64,000 bases of DNA from Minisyncoccota bacterium (GTDB lineage Bacteria; Patescibacteriota; Minisyncoccia; Phycocordibacterales; SBAW01), in contig DASZWM010000007.1 of the NCBI GenBank assembly GCA_035546615.1, forward strand, positions 1 through 64,000, written 5' to 3'. The notes under the pieces are model-generated. The model did no database searches. It was given only the letters and a program-made list of their open reading frames with translations, and had not been told where the DNA came from. Below, in pieces: positions 3,001 to 25,319 of the stretch. Made by a program: the position numbers and the translations under genes. Position 1 is the first letter of the stretch; the number at the start of each line of letters is the position of its first letter.

Positions 3001-6000
3001 CGCCGTGGCGCCGCCGCCCGTCCAGCCCCCGCTGTTATACACAACGCGCAGTTGGCCGCCGCCGCCCACGACATTGTCGCCCTTGAGGATGACGCCGTTG
3101 CCGGAGGTCTGGTTGTAGATGGTCGGGTTCGCGCCGACGGAGTTAAGCGTAAGCGTGTTGTTTGTAGAGTCGAATGCAAAGTCGGAATCATCGGTTATCT
3201 GGCTGCCTGCGCCGATAAAAGGCACGCGGCCGGCAGTGAGGCTCGTAACCCGCAGATTAGTGGTTGTCGCGGTGCCGTTTACCGTTAGGCCGCCGCCCGC
3301 CGCGCCGTTGCCAATCGTTGAGCTTCCGAAGACGCCGATGGATTGCACCGTCGAGCTTGGCGTGAGGAAGGCTGTAGCGCCGGAACCAACGATCTTCCAG
3401 TCACGGAACGCGTTGGCGTAGTAGTCCTGGGATGTGGTCGAGAATGCGCCGCCGGTCGAGGCCCAGTAATTTGCGGATGTGGTCGAGAAGAAGTAGCCCT
3501 TGTCGAAGAGAGCGAGCGTCGAAGTGGAGAGGCGCGAGTTGAAGGTGTTCCAGTCGGTCGACGAGAGATAGCCGTCGGTCGAGCCGCCGGACTGGCTGAT
3601 AGAGAACACGCCGGTTGAGACATTGTACGAAAGCGGGCCGGTCGCGGAGATAGAGGTGGAGCCGAGCAGGCCCAGCGTGTTGGTTGCAGTAAGGCTGTAG
3701 CCGCCGGTGCTGTTGCCTACCAGAATATTTCCGTACGAAGGAGCGGCCGAAAGTCCGGTGCCGCCGTACATGACGCCGAGCGATGAGGTTGCAACCACCG
3801 AGCCCTGCGCGTTGGTGGTAAGGAGCGCGGAGCGCACGCCGAGGATAGCCAGGCCGGTGGTCGTGGCGGTCGTCGTGGTGGAGTAGCGGCCGACGAAGTC
3901 GGTGAGCGTCGTGGTGCCCAAGACCGCGAGGCCGCCGCGGGAGAAGATGCCCGAGATGCCGACATTAATGCCCCCCTGCGCGTATATGTCGCCGCCGACA
4001 TTGAGGTTGTCGGCAATGTTCGCAACGCCGACCTCAAGCGAGCCGATGTTGGCGGCCGGGAGCTTCGCGCCGTTTATATCGACCACCTTCACCGTACTGC
4101 TGTTGCTGGTGACGTAGGCGTATTTGCCCGAGAGGCTCAGGCCGCGCGGGTTGCCGCCGGTCGCGAACGTGCCGACCGAAGTGATGCTCGCGAGGTTGTG
4201 CACGTCGAGCACGACGAGGTTGCCGGACGTGTCGGTAACGTACGCGTAGTCGCCGGCCGCCTCAACCGTGTAGTAGCCGGTGCCGGTCTTGGAGCCCGCC
4301 AGGCTGATGGAGGCCGGGTTGCTTATGTCGAGCACGTAGAGGCCGCCGGAAGCGTCCGCAACATAGAGGTAGCGGCCGGACGCGTACAAGGTCGCCGGAA
4401 CGCTCAGGCCGGTGTAGCTGTATACGGCCGTCGGGCTTGCCGGGTTGCTGATGTCGACGGAAGTGACGGAGCCGTTGTAGATGGAGCCCACGTACAGGTA
4501 CTTGCCCTGCACCGCGACCGAAGACCCCGAGCCGATAGGCGTGCCGGGGGACGAGTACTGGCCCACGATAACGGGCGCCGCCGGGTTGGCGATGTCGACG
4601 ATGTTGACCATGCCGGTGTCGAGGTTCGGCGCGTAGAGGTAGCGGCCGGAGAGCGCGAGCGAAATAGGATGGCCCGCGCCGGAGAGCGTGGAAACGAGGG
4701 TCGGTACCGCCGGGTTGGAGACGTCGATGATAACGAGACCCGCGGACGCGTCGCCGACGTACGCGTACTTGCCGGAGACTACGATGCTCTGCGCTTGGGT
4801 GGTGCCCGTGTAGGAGCCGACGAGCTTGGGGTTGCCCGGCTGGGTGATGTCGAGGATGCGCACGTTTCCGGCGGCAACGTAGGAGTAATGGCCGGAAGTG
4901 TTGATGCCGTATGAAGTCCCGCCGACTAAGGTCGAGGTCGCCAGGGTCGGCGTGCCGCTTGCCACCTGGAGTATATTGCCGCCCGCGACGGTGAGCTTCT
5001 GGGAAGGCGACGTGGTGCCGAAGCCGGCGAGACCGCCGAAGGACGCGATGCCCGAGTTGTAGAAGCCGGTCGTGGTGGCGTTGTCGATGGTCGCGCCTCC
5101 GACCACTTCGAGCTTGGAGAGCGTCGAGGTCGAGGTAAAGCCGATGAGCACCTGGTCGGTCGCGGTCGTCAGGCGGATGCCCGAGCCGTTGAAGTGGGTC
5201 CAGTTGACGTCCGAGCCGGACGCGCCCGCGTCGGTGCCGCACTGGAATTGTCCGGTCGCGGAGTTCCATAGGAGCTTGTCGACCGAGCCGGAGCAGGAAG
5301 AGAGGTTGGCGCCGGTTATCCTGCCGTTTATGTACAGGTTCGTCGTGGTCGAAGTGCCGCTCGTAATGACATCGCCCGGGAAGGTATACACGCTCGAGGA
5401 ATTGCCGCCGAAGGTTCCCGCCTGCGTGGTGATGACGCCGGTGGATGAGGTGTACGAGATGACCGACTGGCCCGAGAGGCTGGTCGAGGAGATCTTGTTG
5501 TTGAAGACGCTCCAGTCGGTATTTGTCAGGAAGCCCGGCTGGGAAGCGTTGGCCTTTTGAGCGCCGGCGTAGTCGATGGAGATAAGGCCGGCGCCGTTAT
5601 CGTTGAAGTCGGACGAAGCGAAGGATGCGGCGCCCTTAGTGCTGCCGTCTGCCTTCGCGTCCTGAATGGAGAACGTGCCGGAGCTTGGGTTGTAGAACAG
5701 CGGCGCGGTGGCGTTGAGCGAGCCGGTCGTAACGAGGCCGAGGCTCGAGGTCGAGGTAAGCGTGTACGTACCATTGCTGTTGCCCACCAAAAGGTTTCCG
5801 TAGCTCGGAGGGGTCGAGAGTCCCGTGCCGCCGTAGATGACCGAGAGCGTCGACGTTGCCGACACGGCGCCGTTAATGGCCTGCAGGGGTCCGGTGATGT
5901 TGGAGATGGTTACGCCGCCGTTGAATGTGTTGCTGTTCGTAAACGTATTGCTGGAGTAGGTCTTCGGAATCGTGCTTGATGCGTCGACGAAATGGATAGC

Positions 6001-18592: not shown

Positions 18593-18622
18593 CCCGGCCT
18601 CATGGTCGGGTATTTTTTATTT
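18593..18622 (+). terminator. Plus-strand intrinsic terminator-like hairpin CCCGGCC-TCAT-GGTCGGG followed by TATTTTTTATTT; overlaps the secA stop codon
   Basis: Stem/loop/T-run read from sequence. Both flanking genes are minus-strand, so it implies a plus-strand transcript (candidate ncRNA 18360-18620), or it is a fortuitous structure. Confidence 0.4.
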
Positions 18623-21115
18623 CTTCGCTGCCATCAAGCGCTGATGTTCTTCCGTGTTCTTCATGCCGCAGTTCTTCCACTTCTTGCCTGAGCCGCAGGG
18701 GCATAGGTCATTGCGCCCGATGCCCTCCTCCGCGGCCATGGCCGCAAGATTAATGGTGGGCGTGGCCGCGGTCGGTGTTGCGGCGAGCGAAGAAGAATTC
18801 TGCGCGGCCTGCGGGGTCACCTTTTCGAGCATCTCGAACACCTGGTTCTTGAGCACCATTTCCATCTCCTTGTACATCTGGGTGCCTTCCCTGCGGTATT
18901 CGACAAGCGGGTCGCGCTGGCCGTAGGCGCGCAGGTTCACGGAGCCGCGCAGGTATTCCATGCTCTCCAAGTGCTCTACCCATAGCATGTCGAGCGTCTG
19001 AAGCACGATGTTGCGCGCGCTGGTAAGCAGCGCTTCGCGGCCGAGCTCCTCTTCTTTCTTCTTCAAAAGCTCCTGCGCTTCCGGGCTTCCCTCGGACAGC
19101 TCCGCAAGCACCGCGGCGACCTCCTCCGGCGTGCCTACGAGCACCGCGCGGCGCTTCTGGTATACGGCGCGGCGCTGGCGGTCGAGCACGTTGTCGAACT
19201 CAAGCACGTGCTTGCGGGCGTCGAAGTTGAATCCTTCTATCTTGGTCTGCGCGCTCTCAAGAGCGCGTGACACGAGCCTGTTCTGTATGGGCTCGTCCTC
19301 GGGAATGCCGAAGCGGCCCATCATCGTCTTGATGGTATCGGAGGCGAAAACGCGCATAAGGGTGTCCTCGAGCGACACGAGGAACTGCGTCTCGCCCGGG
19401 TCGCCCTGGCGGCCGGAGCGGCCGCGCAGCTGGTTGTCGATGCGGCGCGCCTCGTGGCGCTCGGTACCCACGACAAAGAGCCCGCCGAGCGAGCGCACTT
19501 CGTCGGCCTCTTCGGGGCTGGCCATGGCGCCGCCCAACTTGATGTCGACGCCGCGGCCCGCCATGTTGGTGGCGACGGTAACGCGGCCCTTCTTGCCGGC
19601 TTCGGCGACTATCTCGCCTTCGCGCTCGTGGTTCTTGGCGTTGAGTACTTCGTGCGGAATGCCTTCGCGCTTGAGGTACGCCGACAGAAGCTCGTTCTTT
19701 TCTATTGATACGGTGCCCACCAGGACCGGCTGGCCCTTTTCGTGCATGAGCTTTATCTGCTTGGAGAGCGCGCTGAACTTGCCGTTCTCGGTCTGAAAGA
19801 TGAGGTCGTTGTGGTCTTTGCGCACGACCGGCTGGTTGGTCGGCACTTCGGCGACCTCAAGGCCGTATACCTTATAGAATTCCTCGCTCGACGTGGCGGC
19901 GGTGCCGGTCATGCCCGCGAGCTTCCCGTACAGCTTGAAATAGTTCTGATAGGTTATCGAGGCGAACGTGCGCGATTCCTTCTGCACGACCACTCCTTCC
20001 TTGGCCTCTATGGCCTGGTGCAGGCCCTCGCTCCAGCGGCGGCCCGGCTGCATGCGGCCGGTCGACTCGTCTACGATGATGACCTCGCCGTCCTTCACGA
20101 CATACGCGATATCACGCTTGTAGAGGGCGCGTGCGCGCACGGCGGTCTCCAGGTGATGCACGTACTTGATGCCCTTTTCGGTGTAGAGGTCGTCGATGCC
20201 CAGGAGCTTCTCCGCATGGGTGATGCCTTCGTCCGTCATCTGTATCGCCTTGCGCTTCTCGTCCACGGTGTAGTCGGTCTCCGGAGAAAGCGCCGCGGAG
20301 ATGCGCGCGAAGGTGCGGTACAGGTCCTCCGAATCCGCGCCGGGGGCGGAGATGATGAGCGGCGTGCGCGCCTCGTCGATGAGGATGGAGTCAATCTCGT
20401 CCACTATCGCGAAGCTGTGGCCGCGCTGGCGCAGGTCGGACGCCTTGTACGCGATGTTGTCGCGCAGATAATCGAACCCGAATTCGGAATTGGTGCCGTA
20501 CGTGATGTCGGCGGCGTACGCCTGCGCGCGCGAGCACGGGCGCAGAAAATCATGAAAGACGCGGAAGCTCCCTTCCTGGTCGCGCATCGCGTCCTCTTCC
20601 TTCTTCACGTGCGAAGAATCGTACAGGTAGGAGGAGTCGTGATTGATGACGCCGACGGAAAGCCCGAGCGCCGCGTACACCTGGCCCATCCATACGGCGT
20701 CGCGGCGGGCGAGATAGTCGTTGACGGTGATGACATGCACGCCCTTGTTCTCAAGCGCGTTCAAGTACGCGGGCAGGGTGGCGACCAGTGTCTTGCCTTC
20801 GCCGGTCTTCATCTCGGCGATGCCGCCGCGGTGGAGCACCAGGCCGCCGATGAGCTGCACGTCGAAGTGCCGCAGCTTCATTGTGCGCTTTGCCGCCTCG
20901 CGCACGGCGGCGAACGCCTCCGGCAGGATGTCGTCCAGCGTGGCGCCGGCGGCGAGCCGGTTGCGGAAGGCATGCGTCTTTTCCCTCAGCGCCTCCGGGG
21001 AAAGCGCCTGCATATCGGCCTCCAGGCCGTTTACGGCCTCTACCGCCGCCGAAGCTCCTTTCAGGGCCTGGGCGGGGGCGGAGCCGAAGAGATTCTTGAG
21101 CGAAAACATGAGCAA
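18617..21115 (-). CDS. secA: Preprotein translocase ATPase SecA (TTG start per track at 21115; in-frame ATG at 21109 more likely)
   Basis: MFSLKNLFGS..., DEAD-like motor motifs, C-terminal zinc-binding CPCGSGKKWKNCG. Confidence 0.95.
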   Translation of the reverse strand: MLMFSLKNLFGSAPAQALKGASAAVEAVNGLEADMQALSPEALREKTHAFRNRLAAGATLDDILPEAFAAVREAAKRTMKLRHFDVQLIGGLVLHRGGIAEMKTGEGKTLVATLPAYLNALENKGVHVITVNDYLARRDAVWMGQVYAALGLSVGVINHDSSYLYDSSHVKKEEDAMRDQEGSFRVFHDFLRPCSRAQAYAADITYGTNSEFGFDYLRDNIAYKASDLRQRGHSFAIVDEIDSILIDEARTPLIISAPGADSEDLYRTFARISAALSPETDYTVDEKRKAIQMTDEGITHAEKLLGIDDLYTEKGIKYVHHLETAVRARALYKRDIAYVVKDGEVIIVDESTGRMQPGRRWSEGLHQAIEAKEGVVVQKESRTFASITYQNYFKLYGKLAGMTGTAATSSEEFYKVYGLEVAEVPTNQPVVRKDHNDLIFQTENGKFSALSKQIKLMHEKGQPVLVGTVSIEKNELLSAYLKREGIPHEVLNAKNHEREGEIVAEAGKKGRVTVATNMAGRGVDIKLGGAMASPEEADEVRSLGGLFVVGTERHEARRIDNQLRGRSGRQGDPGETQFLVSLEDTLMRVFASDTIKTMMGRFGIPEDEPIQNRLVSRALESAQTKIEGFNFDARKHVLEFDNVLDRQRRAVYQKRRAVLVGTPEEVAAVLAELSEGSPEAQELLKKKEEELGREALLTSARNIVLQTLDMLWVEHLESMEYLRGSVNLRAYGQRDPLVEYRREGTQMYKEMEMVLKNQVFEMLEKVTPQAAQNSSSLAATPTAATPTINLAAMAAEEGIGRNDLCPCGSGKKWKNCGMKNTEEHQRLMAAKK

Positions 21116-21182
21116 ATACTATACCACGAAAGGCTTCATACCGTCAGGGAGCGCTTTGCCGGGCGGCATAGGAAACGGAAAA

Positions 21183-21205
21183 GGCGTCTGCCCAGGACAG
21201 ACGCC
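21183..21205. terminator. Bidirectional intrinsic terminator: perfect hairpin aaaaGGCGTCTG-cccagga-CAGACGCCtttt
   Basis: 12-bp stem including A/T extensions, T-runs on both strands; between murB and the secA promoter region. Confidence 0.55.
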
Positions 21206-21472
21206 TTTTCCTTCGAGAGGATATTCTCGCTCTTCTACAGGAAGAAGAGCGAGTCGCGCATTATCTGCGCTTCTTTGCGGCCTTCTTTGCCTTCTTTTTC
21301 TTTGCCATAATTTTTGTGCGATACGTATCGCAAATTTAAGTGTTGCACCGATCGACCTTGTTTTTTGCGCGCTCGCGAGGGACGTCGCAAGAACAATGCT
21401 CGATGCCCTACATACCAGTATTGTTCATTGCGTATCGATGCACAATGAAAAAAAGATTTCTAGTGTGGATAA

Positions 21473-22471
21473 CTATACGATGCGAACTTCGGGTTCTATT
21501 TCAATCTTAAATGATCGCCGTATTTTTTCTTGCACAAATTCGGCGAGGGTGCGGACATCTTCAGCGGTAGCGCCGCGATCCGCGACAATAACAAGCGGCT
21601 GCCGTTCGAACAGGCGAGCTGTTCCCATGCGGTAACCGCGCAGGTTAAGCGCATGATCTAGAAGCCACGCGAGAGGCACCTTCACTTCTTTTGACTCCGG
21701 CAGATCAAACAGGGGCATTCCCGGGTGGTGCGCCTGGAGTTTAAGAGCGTCTTCCCGAGGCAAAAGCGGGTTCTTGAAGAACGAGCCGGCAGTTCCCTCT
21801 TTGCTGATGTCAGGAAACTTCGCCGCACGTATCTTGAGCACCGCGCTGCGTATCGCGGGCAGAGCCGGCTCCCTGCCGGCGAACCGCTGTGCAAGGTCTT
21901 TGTATGAAATGTTCGGCGAGGGCGCGTCCGAAAGCGCGAAAGCCGCGCGCAAAATGGCGTACCGGCCTTCGTGATGCTTGAAAATGCTCTCGCGGTAGCC
22001 GGATGCGTATTCTTCTTTGCTTATTCTCTTTACCCGCGCGTCTGTCGTATCAAACACTTCGGCCCACTGAAATGTCTGCGACAGCGCCGCGCCGTACGCG
22101 CCGATATTCTGCACGACCGCGCCGCCGACGGTTCCCGGAATGCCGGAAAGATTCTCGATGCCCCACAGCTTACTTTCCACTGCTTGCCCGACAAGCGCGT
22201 CCCAGTTCTCCCCCGCCCCGACGATGAACGCAGTCCTATCGCGCTCGACGCCTTCTATCGCGACCTGCACGACGAGCCCGTCGAAGCCCGCATCATCGAA
22301 CAGCACGTTCGAGCCGCCGCCCAATATAAAAATCTTCCGTTCCTTTTCTTTCGCGAACGCCAACGCCTTGCGCACATCCTCCACGGTCCGCGCAAGCGCG
22401 AGATACCGCGCGGGCCCGCCTATCTTAAAAGTCGTCAGCGGCGCGAGCGAGACGTTTTCCCGTATATCCAT
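21473..22471 (-). CDS. murB: UDP-N-acetylenolpyruvoylglucosamine reductase MurB
   Basis: FAD-binding PCMH domain LAPLTTFKIGGPARY...ILGGGSNVLF and MurB C-terminal domain. Confidence 0.9.
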   Translation of the reverse strand: MDIRENVSLAPLTTFKIGGPARYLALARTVEDVRKALAFAKEKERKIFILGGGSNVLFDDAGFDGLVVQVAIEGVERDRTAFIVGAGENWDALVGQAVESKLWGIENLSGIPGTVGGAVVQNIGAYGAALSQTFQWAEVFDTTDARVKRISKEEYASGYRESIFKHHEGRYAILRAAFALSDAPSPNISYKDLAQRFAGREPALPAIRSAVLKIRAAKFPDISKEGTAGSFFKNPLLPREDALKLQAHHPGMPLFDLPESKEVKVPLAWLLDHALNLRGYRMGTARLFERQPLVIVADRGATAEDVRTLAEFVQEKIRRSFKIEIEPEVRIV

Positions 22472-22591
22472 CGTCGTAAGGTGTGCTCTGTGTGGGAAGC
22501 GGATGCGAGCTCCAAAACATTGTCATGATGTGAGTGCAGACGCTCCCCACGCAAAGCGCACTCCTTGAGTATAACAGGTGTGAGAGGCTCG

Positions 22592-22740
22592 TCAGATTCA
22601 CTAGGCCGGATGGAGCGCGAGGCGTCGAGGAGCGAAAAAGTGAGGCATAGGTTGCTATGGCGAGCTTTTTCGCGACAAAGGCAACGATGCGATACGCCGG
22701 CCTAGTGAATCTGAAAACGAAAATCCCCCATTGCTGGGGG
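22592..22740. repeat. 18-bp perfect inverted repeat (tcagattcactaggccgg / ccggcctagtgaatctga) flanking 87 nt that contain a nested 9-bp IR (gcgaaaaag / ctttttcgc). Followed by hairpin CCCCCA-ttgc-TGGGGG 22725-22740 with a minus-strand T-run
   Basis: Repeats read directly; arms at 22592-22609 and 22697-22714. Confidence 0.45.
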
Positions 22741-23039
22741 CTTTCGTTGACAATGTTTCTGAAGAGCCGGCGCATCCCGGCACTCACATATAATAAGTAT
22801 AGCAAAACTCACTACTATGTCCATAAATGCGCGGGACGTCGATGAGATGCGAGGCGCAGATGAGGATCGGACTGAGCAATAGGCCGCCTATTGTGAAGGT
22901 GAGAACGTGCGGGGCACGTTCGCAAGACCTTTTGAGATAGTTTGTTCCTTTCTGAAGGGATCGAACTATCCAAAAGGTGTACTGCTCCTGTAAGGAGAAC
23001 CGGAATCCGCAACAAAGCAGATCGCGGCGTCCAGCGCGT

Positions 23040-25319
23040 TTATTGTCCAGGTTTTAGAGTGCCGTTCTTTATATTCGTGATAAGCCCCTGCACCTGTCCC
23101 GCCGCCGCGGGATTGAGCCTGATGACCTCTTCGAGCTCGGCGATGGTCTCGGCGGTCTTCCCTGCGGTGAAGTACGCGGAGGCGAGCTGCACGTGCATAT
23201 TGGCGTCGTTCGGATTCTTCGCGACCCGAGCCTGCCAGACGGCGACGATGCGGCCGTACTGCTTGGTGTCGGTATATATCTGGAGGAGCTGGTCGTTATC
23301 GACCGCCGTGGTGCCGTACGCCTGCATAAGCAGCGCATCGGCTGCGGCGTTCTGGCCGGCGTAGTACAGGGCGCCGGCGTAGGCGATGCGCGCCTGCTCG
23401 TAATCGGGCGATAGGTCGAAGGCTTTCTTGAAGGCGGCCAGGCCGTTGCTCAAATCGCCCTTCTGTATATAGGTCTGGCCCTCTTGGAAGAGGATCTGCT
23501 GCTTGCCCGGCGAGAGCTTCGCGGCCGTAGCCAAATGCTTAAGCGCATCGTCGTACTGGCCGTACTGGGTCAGGAACAGGCTGTCGAACAACTCAAGGCG
23601 CGCGTCATTCTTACGCTGAGCAAGCATCGCGTCTCCCGCGGCGCGCGTATAGGCGTATACGGTTTGGGTCAGCTCCGGGCTCGCGCCGGAAGAAGCCTGC
23701 CGCAGGCCGTTTGCGAACTGGAAGAGCTGTTCCGTGGTTTCCTGCCGGCCGAGCTCGGCCCCGTCGTCGAGTGCCGCCTTGAAGGAGGCGAACCGCTTGT
23801 CCGGCGTGCGCGGCGCGCCCGTGGGCTCGTTCGTCTGCAGGCCGTCGATAATGGTCTGCGCGCGCGCCATGCCGCCGGCGTTGAGCATCCACGCTCCGCC
23901 GAGCACCAGCACGGCCACAAGCGGCGCGACTATGGCGACCGTATGGTCATTAACGGGCCTGAGCCAGAACATCCACCGCGGCAGCGCCTTCCACGAAAGC
24001 ACGTGGAGGTACGCCAGCAGCAGGAAGAAGTACGCGATGCTCAAAAGGTTGTCGAACACGAACAGGTTGTTGAAGGCGTAGGCCGCCAGAAGGCCCAGCA
24101 ATACGGCCTGCTCGGGGCTGGTAAGCTCAGCCGAGCGGAGTATCGCCCACACGCCAAGCCCGAACAGCGATATGTACAAAAGGAGCGCCGGAACGCCGCC
24201 GGCGACGAACCAGTCGAGAAATTCGTTGTGCGCGCGGTCGAACCACTGCTCCTGCGCCCACATGGCCGGATTGTAATGCTCGTTGAATATGTAGCTGAAG
24301 TTCTCCTGGCCCCAGCCGGTAACCGGCTTCTCGAGCGCGCCCTGCACGGCCATAGGCCATATATAGAAGAGGCGGGCCTTGGTCGTGCCGTCCTCAAGCG
24401 ATATAGACGCGAGGCGTCCGAGGCCGGGAGAGTTGCGGACGAAGTCCGTATCCTTCACCGCGATGAAGAGCGCCGCGCATATCGCGATGACGCCAAGCGC
24501 TCCCCATGACGCGCGGCGAAGCGTCCTGTACTGCTCTTCCCTGGCGCGCAGCGCCACGTATACGGCGGCCACGATAAGCCCGCCCACAAAGCCCAAAAGC
24601 GCGCCGCGGGTCTCGGTAAAGTAGAGCGCCGGCAACTCGAGCAGGAGCGCGATGCCGTAGAGCGTCAATGCGGTCGGCGACCTGCGGTCGCGCACCATCA
24701 TATAGAGCGTCAGGAAGAGGTTGAGCAGCATGAACACGGCCAGGTACGTCGCGTTGCCGAAGCTGGTATCGGCGCGCACGCCGGACTGGGTCGAGGGCGA
24801 CAGGCCGAACAGGTGGAACACCTGGAAAAGCGCGTAGATGCCTTGCGTTGCTGCTACCGCTATAGAGATGCGGAAGAACGCGTCCCACCAGCGCGACGCG
24901 TTGAATACTGCGCCGGCCACCACGAACAGCGCGAACAGGTGTATGACGGTAATGTAGCCGTCCATGCGCTCGAAGTTGCTCCAGAAGCTCTTTATCGGGT
25001 CGACGCTCAGCGCGGTCGCAAGAGCCATCCACAGCACGAACGCGCCGGCGGCCCACATAAGGTACGAGGCCTTGGGGCGGTATGCCGGCTCCTTTATCGC
25101 GAGTATGGCGTACAGCAGGACGATAAGCTCGACGAGCAGGCGGAACACGAAGTTCTTGCCCGTAATGTACGGGAAGTACATGGCCGGCACCCAGCCGCTG
25201 CCGGCGACGATAAAGGAGATGCACGGGACGGCGCACAGCCCGCCGATAATAGCCCAGCGCAGATAGGTGGTATACGACATACGCGACACTATACCACAAC
25301 ACAGGCCGCCGATCCCCAA
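23040..25319 (-). CDS. O-antigen ligase family (Wzy_C-like) polytopic membrane protein with C-terminal TPR repeats
   Basis: About 12 TM helices in the first 450 aa, then TPR-like repeats (LAAFKKAFDLSPDYEQARIAYAGALYYAGQ...). Start may be internal (MSYTTYL). Confidence 0.7.
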   Translation of the reverse strand: MGIGGLCCGIVSRMSYTTYLRWAIIGGLCAVPCISFIVAGSGWVPAMYFPYITGKNFVFRLLVELIVLLYAILAIKEPAYRPKASYLMWAAGAFVLWMALATALSVDPIKSFWSNFERMDGYITVIHLFALFVVAGAVFNASRWWDAFFRISIAVAATQGIYALFQVFHLFGLSPSTQSGVRADTSFGNATYLAVFMLLNLFLTLYMMVRDRRSPTALTLYGIALLLELPALYFTETRGALLGFVGGLIVAAVYVALRAREEQYRTLRRASWGALGVIAICAALFIAVKDTDFVRNSPGLGRLASISLEDGTTKARLFYIWPMAVQGALEKPVTGWGQENFSYIFNEHYNPAMWAQEQWFDRAHNEFLDWFVAGGVPALLLYISLFGLGVWAILRSAELTSPEQAVLLGLLAAYAFNNLFVFDNLLSIAYFFLLLAYLHVLSWKALPRWMFWLRPVNDHTVAIVAPLVAVLVLGGAWMLNAGGMARAQTIIDGLQTNEPTGAPRTPDKRFASFKAALDDGAELGRQETTEQLFQFANGLRQASSGASPELTQTVYAYTRAAGDAMLAQRKNDARLELFDSLFLTQYGQYDDALKHLATAAKLSPGKQQILFQEGQTYIQKGDLSNGLAAFKKAFDLSPDYEQARIAYAGALYYAGQNAAADALLMQAYGTTAVDNDQLLQIYTDTKQYGRIVAVWQARVAKNPNDANMHVQLASAYFTAGKTAETIAELEEVIRLNPAAAGQVQGLITNIKNGTLKPGQ

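Follow-up and report, generated by a model that had tools for sequence, protein, structure and literature searches.

The genomes of the candidate phyla radiation (CPR) are tiny and their spacers short, so that a gap of some 570 bp between two genes is conspicuous and raises the question of what it contains. Such a gap lies in the DNA analyzed here, the first 64,000 nucleotides of contig DASZWM010000007.1 from a Minisyncoccota bacterium (GenBank assembly GCA_035546615.1), a metagenome-assembled genome of Candidatus Paceibacterota; "the window" means this whole stretch, and positions given without a locus name refer to it. The gap separates a gene for a Wzy_C+TPR protein (23040-25319, minus strand, stop codon at 23040) from the MurB gene (21473-22471, minus strand). 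To our knowledge, regulation by RNA is almost unexplored in CPR/Patescibacteria. The spacer yields three candidate RNAs with comparative support: a small RNA (RNA1), a structured partner that is also the murB leader (RNA2), and an optional hairpin (hairpin A). Our best explanation is that it is a compact minus-strand small-RNA locus with two lineage-specific structured insertions. We put the probability of this explanation at roughly 0.6, a figure that covers the RNA1/RNA2 locus together with hairpin A as an accessory RNA.

The spacer upstream of murB is structured and noncoding

The order Wzy-MurB-SecA is kept even among relatives that share only 51-69% MurB identity with the window. The Wzy-MurB spacer is 568 nt here and about 200-350 nt in the relatives, and from these shorter spacers it can be predicted that the window holds conserved content plus extra DNA. 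In the closest relative, P0002 (MurB 69% identical), the genes stand in the same order and the spacer measures 198 nt; the MurB of P0106 is 70% identical and lacks its N-terminus. The spacer was read on the minus strand and aligned with seven relatives retrieved through MurB, to which were added 29 metagenome loci retrieved with the 20-mer ACAATGTTTTGGAGCTCGCA from the RNA2 core. Counts of motifs and of covariation given below refer to 33 distinct related Paceibacteria loci or sequences.

The whole 568-nt spacer is strongly structured on both strands (z about -9.1 against shuffles). An annotation made earlier from the letters of the window, called here the first-pass annotation, had judged it too structured for a plain spacer, and folding scores this far below those of shuffled sequences agree with that judgment. 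It had also seen no convincing open reading frame (ORF) there. A check of the spacer ORFs bore this out: none is convincing, no frame is kept across the relatives, and conservation is at the nucleotide level. A coding spacer was rejected on these grounds. A scan for tRNA and transfer-messenger RNA (tmRNA) matched only a distant tRNA-Leu, which was also the sole match of Rfam 15 over the window. An Rfam scan of the spacer itself, a check that the first-pass annotation had suggested, gave no family: there was nothing at E <= 1 (2.5 kb searched), and at E <= 10 a 361-nt stretch gave only noise of 14-25 bits. Rfam 15 likewise had no match in the relatives L026, L035, and L038, and blastn against phage and plasmid collections returned nothing useful.

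RNA1 and RNA2 are two conserved candidate RNA genes

RNA1 is a putative small RNA of ~75 nt (~22789-22715, minus strand) whose ends are placed by a -10 box and a terminal T-run. The -10 box, TATACT in the extended form TGcTATACT (22796..22801, minus strand), emerged from a promoter scan and from the relatives: a TAnAnT hexamer ends 6-8 nt before the GTGAG of RNA1 in 31 of 33 loci, and in 21 of those it reads TATACT. The promoter scan also marked a -35-like hexamer, TGGACA (22818..22823, minus strand), with a 16-nt spacer to TATACT, TG upstream of the latter, and 10/12 matches; this -35 is not conserved in the relatives, whereas the -10 is. RNA1 begins at its 5' end with seed a, AUGUGAGUGC (22789-22780), continues with a short hairpin that varies (22780-22767) and then with seed b, AAACAUUGUCA (22758-22748), and closes with an intrinsic terminator found by a terminator scan, AACGAAAGCCCCCagcaaUGGGGGAUUUUCGUU followed by a U-run (22716..22748), all on the minus strand. 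RNA1 was found in 7/7 relatives retrieved through MurB and in every metagenome locus that covers the upstream sequence; both it and RNA2 occur in all 33 distinct loci.

The hairpin CCCCCA-ttgc-TGGGGG (22725-22740), which had been taken for a minus-strand terminator in the first-pass annotation, is real and forms part of the terminator of RNA1. Its stem has 6 bp, with five G-C pairs, and on the minus strand ATTTTCGTTTT comes next. Either strand scored in the terminator scan, the minus strand having the better T-run, and with its symmetric A and T tracts the terminator could act in both directions. The form ACGAAA-stem-UUUUCGU is kept in all loci with RNA1 in view. A TTGACA (22747) and a TATAAT (22790) that had earlier been remarked on as promoter elements do not form a promoter. 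They are 37 nt apart, which rules out a promoter of the sigma-70 type, and both lie within RNA1 on the opposite strand: TTGACA is the complement of seed b, and TATAAT that of the letters separating the RNA1 -10 box from the start. The short internal hairpin of RNA1 covaries (helix 2 of the 33-sequence alignment). In most loci its loop (22776-22771 in the window) nearly always ends in AUG or GUG while the stem varies, with GAUG, AUGAUG, GUGAUG, and GGUG as variants; since these endings are kept despite the varying stem, the loop sequence is constrained.

RNA2 is a putative hairpin RNA of ~84 nt (~22563-22480, minus strand), delimited by a covarying closing stem in which seven pairs have changed on both sides. 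Promoter scan and relatives again agree on a -10 box, TATACT in the extended form TGtTATACT (22568..22573, minus strand). A -10 hexamer precedes RNA2 at a fixed distance in 32 of 33 loci and is TATACT in 25 of them. The -35-like CTGACG (22595-22590, minus strand) covers the final 4 nt of hairpin A. The apical region of ~45 nt is almost invariant at every locus and contains segment a', GCACUCACAU (22537-22528), segment b', UGACAAUGUUU (22525-22515), and the invariant UUUUGGAGCUCGCAUCCGCUUCCC (22517-22494), all on the minus strand. RNA2 is present in 37/37 loci, including 29/29 metagenome loci that had been retrieved with the RNA2 core. Self-pairing of GCACUCACA with UGUUUUGGAGC is predicted by RNAalifold from invariant columns and is thus a prediction only. 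Identification of RNA2 as signal recognition particle RNA, 6S RNA, a piece of tmRNA, a T-loop, a C/D-box RNA, or a type I toxin was rejected on sequence grounds, by comparison with the consensus motifs of these classes and for want of an Rfam match. A search of the 64-kb window for the complement of the invariant UUGGAGCUCGCAUCC returned nothing beyond the locus itself.

RNA1 and RNA2 are complementary and change in step

Seed a of RNA1, AUGUGAGUGC, is complementary to segment a' of RNA2, GCACUCACAU, and seed b, AAACAUUGUCA, to segment b', UGACAAUGUUU; two inverted-repeat pairs of the window, I7 and I9, are the footprints of this complementarity. Together, the RNA1 segments target the contiguous GCACUCACAU-ca-UGACAAUGUUU within the apical region of RNA2. 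The arrangement is unusual: RNA1 runs a-hairpin-b, whereas a' and b' adjoin in RNA2. As predicted from these letters, RNA1 amounts to an antisense of the RNA2 loop in circularly permuted order, and the duplex would span about 21-25 bp, nearly continuous, with a nick at the 5' end of RNA1.

The variable part of helix b, formed by seed b and segment b', changes in step in the two RNAs (GUCA/UGAC, GUCCUA/UAGGAC, GUCUUA/UAAGAC, GUUCUA/UAGAAC, GUUCAA/UUGAAC, and GUCC/GGAC). Over 33 distinct RNA1+RNA2 pairs, 90.6% of the cells are paired, compared to 33-54% with slid partner columns. The alignment has a covariation score of 0.178, shuffles one of 0.117, and 0 of 500 shuffles reach 0.178. Helix b alone is 95.9% paired between the molecules, with both-sided changes at three pairs, 44-138 (CG 18, UA 10, UG 4), 45-137 (CG 22, UA 7), and 46-136, and one-sided, G.U-compatible changes at seven. 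Covariation between two separate genes is a rare type of evidence and makes the interaction of RNA1 with RNA2 directly testable. Two features of trans-acting small RNAs can thus be recognized: complementarity kept by covariation, seen for helix b, and, at the level of motifs, a promoter of their own for RNA1 and RNA2 and a terminator at the end of RNA1.

Gene order in the relatives separates the two RNAs. A Trp_repressor-family gene stands between RNA1 and RNA2 in L006, L017, and L019, and L033 has RNA1 in inverted orientation. In at least nine loci, a terminator-like hairpin with a T-run belongs to RNA2 itself, and in six loci murB is absent downstream of RNA2, where a unit of a tiny ORF and SecA follows instead. 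The intervening gene, the inversion, the RNA2 terminators, and the loss of murB all indicate that RNA1 and RNA2 are separate units.

In the proposed mechanism, GCACUCACA of free RNA2 would be held by UGUUUUGGAGC, and binding of RNA1 would open the apical helix and free the invariant UUGGAGCUCGCAUCC; alternatively, the RNA1/RNA2 duplex may serve as a substrate of RNase III. By either route, RNA1 would tune the activity of RNA2 and, in the window genome, the expression of murB. A bolder form of this idea, tentative and in our estimate somewhat unlikely, is that RNA1 and RNA2 make up an undescribed, clade-wide two-RNA switch of Paceibacteria, which would expose an effector of ~20 nt and link envelope genes (Wzy-murB-secA) to a signal, with hairpin A as an optional third RNA partner.

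RNA2 is the leader of murB in the window

The start codon of murB was placed at the ATG 22469..22471 (minus strand) by N-terminal alignment with P0002, P0003, and P0007. It lies 8 nt past the closing stem of RNA2, with no Shine-Dalgarno sequence and no space for a separate promoter, and RNA2 is therefore physically the 5' leader of murB here. RNA2 stands directly upstream of murB in about 20 of the 33 loci; it is thus not always directly upstream of a regulated gene, as a cis-acting leader or riboswitch would be. The first-pass annotation had offered a small RNA or a riboregulator of murB as possible contents of the spacer. That idea holds insofar as the spacer has small-RNA genes and RNA2 is the murB leader, but it applies to RNA1 and RNA2, neither of which had been seen at that time.

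The MurB protein deposited at NCBI (P0001, 343 aa) starts at an ATG at 22504, which would make the spacer shorter but is inside the conserved RNA2, and the MurB call of L001 starts at a TTG (L001:4001), also inside conserved RNA2. The relatives do not conserve the reading frame through RNA2, and the alignment of MurB homologues begins at 22471 (MDIRENV...). The N-terminal extensions annotated in the window and in L001 are probably wrong; for annotation, this means that the MurB starts of the window and of some relatives, such as L001, probably lie too far upstream.

Hairpin A is an optional module between RNA1 and RNA2

The most prominent repeat of the spacer was the one on which the first-pass annotation had centered, an 18-bp perfect inverted repeat pair with 87 nt between the arms, and it proved exact: TCAGATTCACTAGGCCGG (22592-22609) and its exact reverse complement CCGGCCTAGTGAATCTGA (22697-22714) enclose 87 nt. 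This is the longest perfect inverted repeat in the 64 kb among arms up to 300 nt apart. The 18-mer arm, with up to three mismatches, has only these two sites in the window, where 0.07 would be expected by chance. Inverted-repeat and folding analysis delimited hairpin A, 123 nt (22592..22714), which may be read from either the plus or the minus strand. It consists of the 18-bp perfect outer stem, a loose middle with conserved sequence, a 10-bp stem, and an apical CAUAG-loop-CUAUG; within it lie the nested 9-bp inverted repeat noted earlier, GCGAAAAAG with CTTTTTCGC, and the CATAG/CTATG of the apex. Against shuffles, a 166-nt stretch with hairpin A folded with z = -8.6 (plus strand) and -7.5 (minus strand). 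Hairpin A begins directly after the T-run of the RNA1 terminator and ends 18 nt before the -10 box of RNA2. Its complementarity to RNA1 or RNA2 is no better than that of shuffled sequences. Other inverted repeats built on a similar plan, one at 44.5 kb and others at 49-50 kb, fall within long ORFs and were set aside as chance.

A homologue in the same place and orientation was identified at L026:3261-3380 (blastn E 1e-7, nhmmer 4e-8), in a locus whose MurB is 54% identical to that of the window. All 43 of the 43 predicted pairs are kept and none is broken. Among the 43, 11 have changed on both sides and 2 on one side compatibly (C-G to U-G); in addition, 2 pairs have been deleted on both sides together. 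Slid controls yield 2 at most. The outer stems differ throughout, and the 10-bp inner stem, GCGAAAAAGU/GCUUUUUCGC in the window, is quite different yet complementary in L026. The middle blocks GGAUGRAG, GCGAGGCG, and AGGCAACGA and the apical GAGnCAUAG...CUAUGGCGAG are conserved between the two. Indels of 2, 1, and 2 nt separate the copies, and any reading frame in hairpin A would be broken by them. The first-pass annotation had held that its structured element would fall if further copies, a transcript, and conservation were all lacking; the L026 homologue with its compensatory changes amounts to conservation. Its observation is confirmed, and its interpretation partly supported.

Hairpin A is absent from most relatives. 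The spacer between RNA1 and RNA2 measures only 14-38 nt in 21 of 32 loci and has at least 50 extra nt in the other 11 of 32, which marks it as an insertion hotspot. Its inserts include unrelated closed hairpins (L001, L020, and L031) and the Trp_repressor-family gene, and extra terminator-like hairpins occur there in L004, L006, and L007. On this comparison, hairpin A is an optional module between the RNA1 terminator and the RNA2 promoter, apparently selected for its fold and its internal-loop sequence.

The first-pass annotation had also raised a MITE-like insertion (MITE, miniature inverted-repeat transposable element), which should recur, and this found no support: no second copy turned up in the window or in the collections searched. 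A covariance model of the hairpin A pair, run over the window and 309 kb of related loci, found only the syntenic L026 copy. In the GTDB species representatives there was one chance match to a single arm, in the JGI metagenomes there were 0 matches to the two-arm pattern, and in IMG/VR there were 3 single-arm chance matches; the single-arm matches of the database scans fell in coding-like DNA. There is no target-site duplication, as the flanks ...TTTTCGTTT / element / CGAGCCTC... have no direct repeat, and comparison of the hairpin A borders with the empty sites in L030 and L027 showed no duplication either. Hairpin A does have terminal inverted repeats, the 18-bp arms, but the whole element is one hairpin, and the feature is not specific to MITEs. 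Selection on fold and loop sequence, a single syntenic copy, and the lack of a target-site duplication favor an accessory RNA over a MITE, and hairpin A is most likely an accessory structured RNA rather than a proliferating MITE.

The fold energy of hairpin A is -70.6 kcal/mol in the plus sense versus -53.1 in the minus sense, and that of the L026 copy is -46.7 versus -35.5 kcal/mol; two U.G pairs are conserved between the copies. The RNA would probably be of plus sense and might be ended by the RNA1 terminator acting bidirectionally. A promoter scan found no convincing plus-strand promoter for it.

Two long hairpins from IMG/VR, ~120-170 nt and in non-CPR contexts, were also considered as homologues. 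One (L087:3790-3950, 38 bits) lies upstream of a DUF3800 gene near Kup and UmuC, and the other (L046:7802-7924, 33 bits) just past the stop of a P22-like "phage stabilisation" gene. Both align over the full length of the hairpin A model R1 and have short motifs in common with it. Their pairwise z values are only 3.0-4.5 against the window and L026 and 0.6 against each other; they had been preselected by seed motifs and are probably chance.

Alternative explanations of the locus

The complementarity of RNA1 and RNA2 could instead represent DNA sites of one regulator in both units, with RNA2 merely a cis-acting leader of murB. The complementary segments do look like inverted DNA repeats, namely I7 and I9, and the position of RNA2 directly before murB in about 20 of the 33 loci would suit a leader. 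However, the two-sided changes keep Watson-Crick or G.U pairing, G.U-specific variants included, and retain no fixed site sequence. The segments are moreover downstream of the -10 boxes, within the transcribed parts, and RNA2 carries its own terminator in some loci and is without murB in others. We consider regulator sites highly improbable. Several points nonetheless weigh against two pairing transcripts, the reading we prefer. The ends of RNA1 and RNA2 are all placed from motifs. Helix a (GUGAGUG/CACUCAC) is invariant and gives no covariation information. The middle dinucleotide of helix b, which is UU, CC, AC, or AA in RNA1, faces an invariant AA in RNA2 and is mismatched in most lineages, and the permuted topology requires the RNA1 linker to bridge the entire duplex.

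For hairpin A, the choice lies between an accessory RNA and two other readings. It may be a selfish or neutral palindromic insert, MITE-like or a product of template switching, in a permissive spacer and without function for the cell. Hairpin A is missing both in L030, whose RNA1 and RNA2 come closest to those of the window, and in L027, whose RNA1 comes closest to that of L026; it is thus dispensable and its distribution patchy, as expected of a mobile or neutral insert, and it sits in an insertion hotspot where other loci hold hairpins and a gene. The outer stem, a perfect 18 bp in the window and different and imperfect in L026, resembles a recent inverted copy, and template switching is described as able to yield multibase "compensatory" changes in one step (PMC8794818). 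These points, together with a family of two members whose tested structure was derived from the same two sequences, weigh against an accessory RNA. So does a plus-sense preference that depends on four G.U positions, two of them shared (roughly P = 0.1, not significant). The plus-sense -10 candidates (TATAAC, and TATAGA in L026) are without the critical final T, and that of L026 would start transcription within the stem. The copy search in the source genome covered only the 64-kb window, and copies elsewhere in that genome are possible. A neutral insert is at odds with the missing second copy in any of the collections searched, with borders free of a target-site duplication, with two U.G pairs kept at the same positions, and with unpaired loop sequence kept at 54% MurB identity, which is unexpected for neutral DNA; overall, we think it unlikely but a serious rival. 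Should it be correct, the locus would still show inserts gathering at one permissive junction. The other reading is that hairpin A acts in the minus sense and in cis, as an insulator or processing site (e.g., for RNase III) on read-through from RNA1 into RNA2-murB, which would keep the complementary RNAs apart. It would suit the exact position of hairpin A between the RNA1 T-run and the RNA2 promoter and the second terminator-like hairpin at the same spot in L004, L006, and L007, and a perfect duplex of 18-20 bp is a plausible RNase III substrate. Yet in the minus sense no T-run follows hairpin A, the fold is weaker by 17.5 kcal/mol in the window and by about 11 in L026, A.C mismatches take the place of the conserved U.G pairs, and most genomes are without hairpin A. 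We regard an insulator as improbable and retain an accessory RNA as the preferred reading.

Comparison with known systems

A full-text search of the literature on small and structured RNAs of CPR bacteria found no description of RNA1, RNA2, or hairpin A. From general knowledge, CopA/CopT of plasmid R1, RNA I/RNA II of ColE1, and chromosomal pairs of small RNAs and sponges resemble RNA1 and RNA2 in that a short RNA with its own promoter and intrinsic terminator is complementary over some length (~21-25 bp here) to the apical part of a stable hairpin in another RNA; the pairing of RNA1 with RNA2 coevolves. Unlike these systems, RNA1 and RNA2 are in tandem on the same strand with their segments permuted, and they are chromosomal, clade-wide in Paceibacteria, and have no link to replication control. 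RNA2 resembles leaders and riboswitch-like regulators of cell wall genes in being highly conserved, structured, and situated directly before murB (in about 20/33 loci). It differs in that some loci give it a terminator of its own or lack murB, in that its partner is an RNA, and in that it shows no evident ligand pocket.

Hairpin A is comparable to ERIC/IRU, the MITE-like enterobacterial palindromes, as an imperfect palindrome of ~120-130 nt beside a terminator that is also kept between distant genomes by paired changes. It differs from the multicopy ERIC and MITE families in having one copy here and one same-site copy in a relative, and it has no sequence similarity to ERIC/IRU and no Rfam or blast match. 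With 6S RNA (RF00013) it shares only a shape, a rod with a long closing stem, a loose conserved center, and an apical stem. 6S RNA is roughly 160-200 nt, whereas hairpin A has 123 nt, no Rfam match at E <= 10, and is missing from this locus in most relatives. In kind, these elements are ordinary, namely base-pairing small RNAs and a structured element; what is new are the members, the permuted antisense arrangement, and the CPR setting.

Other features of the locus and its surroundings

Between the stop codon of the Wzy_C-TPR gene (23040) and the RNA1 promoter lies stretch B (22826..23039), a closed multihairpin region of ~210 nt that has been assigned to neither strand. Its folding z values are -6.1 and -5.3 on the two strands. 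No similar sequence was found in any other locus compared, and stretch B is specific to this genome. In relatives with the junction in view, the RNA1 -10 box is usually about 10-60 nt past the upstream stop, and a few have a hairpin of their own there. Stretch B and hairpin A share short G+C-rich motifs (D1, D3, and D10); because these are not at equivalent structural positions, homology between the two is not claimed. Stretch B also holds the 8-mer GATGCGAG (22846-22853), which recurs at 22502-22509 as the complement of the RNA2 invariant CUCGCAUC, and a motif, GCGCGGGACGTCGATGAG, that resembles GCGCGAGGCGTCGAGGAG inside hairpin A, with a match length expected by chance in 700 nt.

A UDP-glucose dehydrogenase gene (minus strand) belongs to the upstream neighborhood of murB, and the SecA gene (18617-21115, minus strand) follows downstream. 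The murB-secA spacer (21116-21472, minus strand) contains a second conserved unit, all on the minus strand: the motif TTATCCACA (21472-21464) immediately past the stop of murB, then a structured leader, GGGCAUCGAGC...GUCCCUCGCGAGCG...GGUCGAUCGGUGC, a Lys-rich ORF of 15 codons, MAKKKKAKKAAKKRR (21308-21261), and a strong terminator (21211-21177) followed by the secA promoter. This unit directly follows RNA2 in the six murB-less loci (L012, L025, L029, L033, L035, and L038) and had no Rfam match in L035 or L038. The possibility that TTATCCACA, which follows RNA2 in some loci, marks a replication origin was rejected, as it is a single box and also follows murB upstream of the tiny-ORF unit.

The Trp_repressor-family gene between RNA1 and RNA2 (L006:3369-3788, also in L017 and L019) encodes a protein of ~139 aa on the opposite strand. 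On each side of the gene stands an 18-bp palindrome (e.g., ACTATGATATATCATAGT) that looks like its operator. Two lineages, represented by L004 (about 3895-3995) and L031/L039, have a second family of closed hairpins, of ~100 nt and with no sequence relationship to hairpin A, between RNA2 and murB. Its members have the form AAAAACGAAG...GCGGAAAAUUUCYUGCU...AAAUUUUCCUA, with a 14-bp outer stem in L004 and z values of about -5.5.

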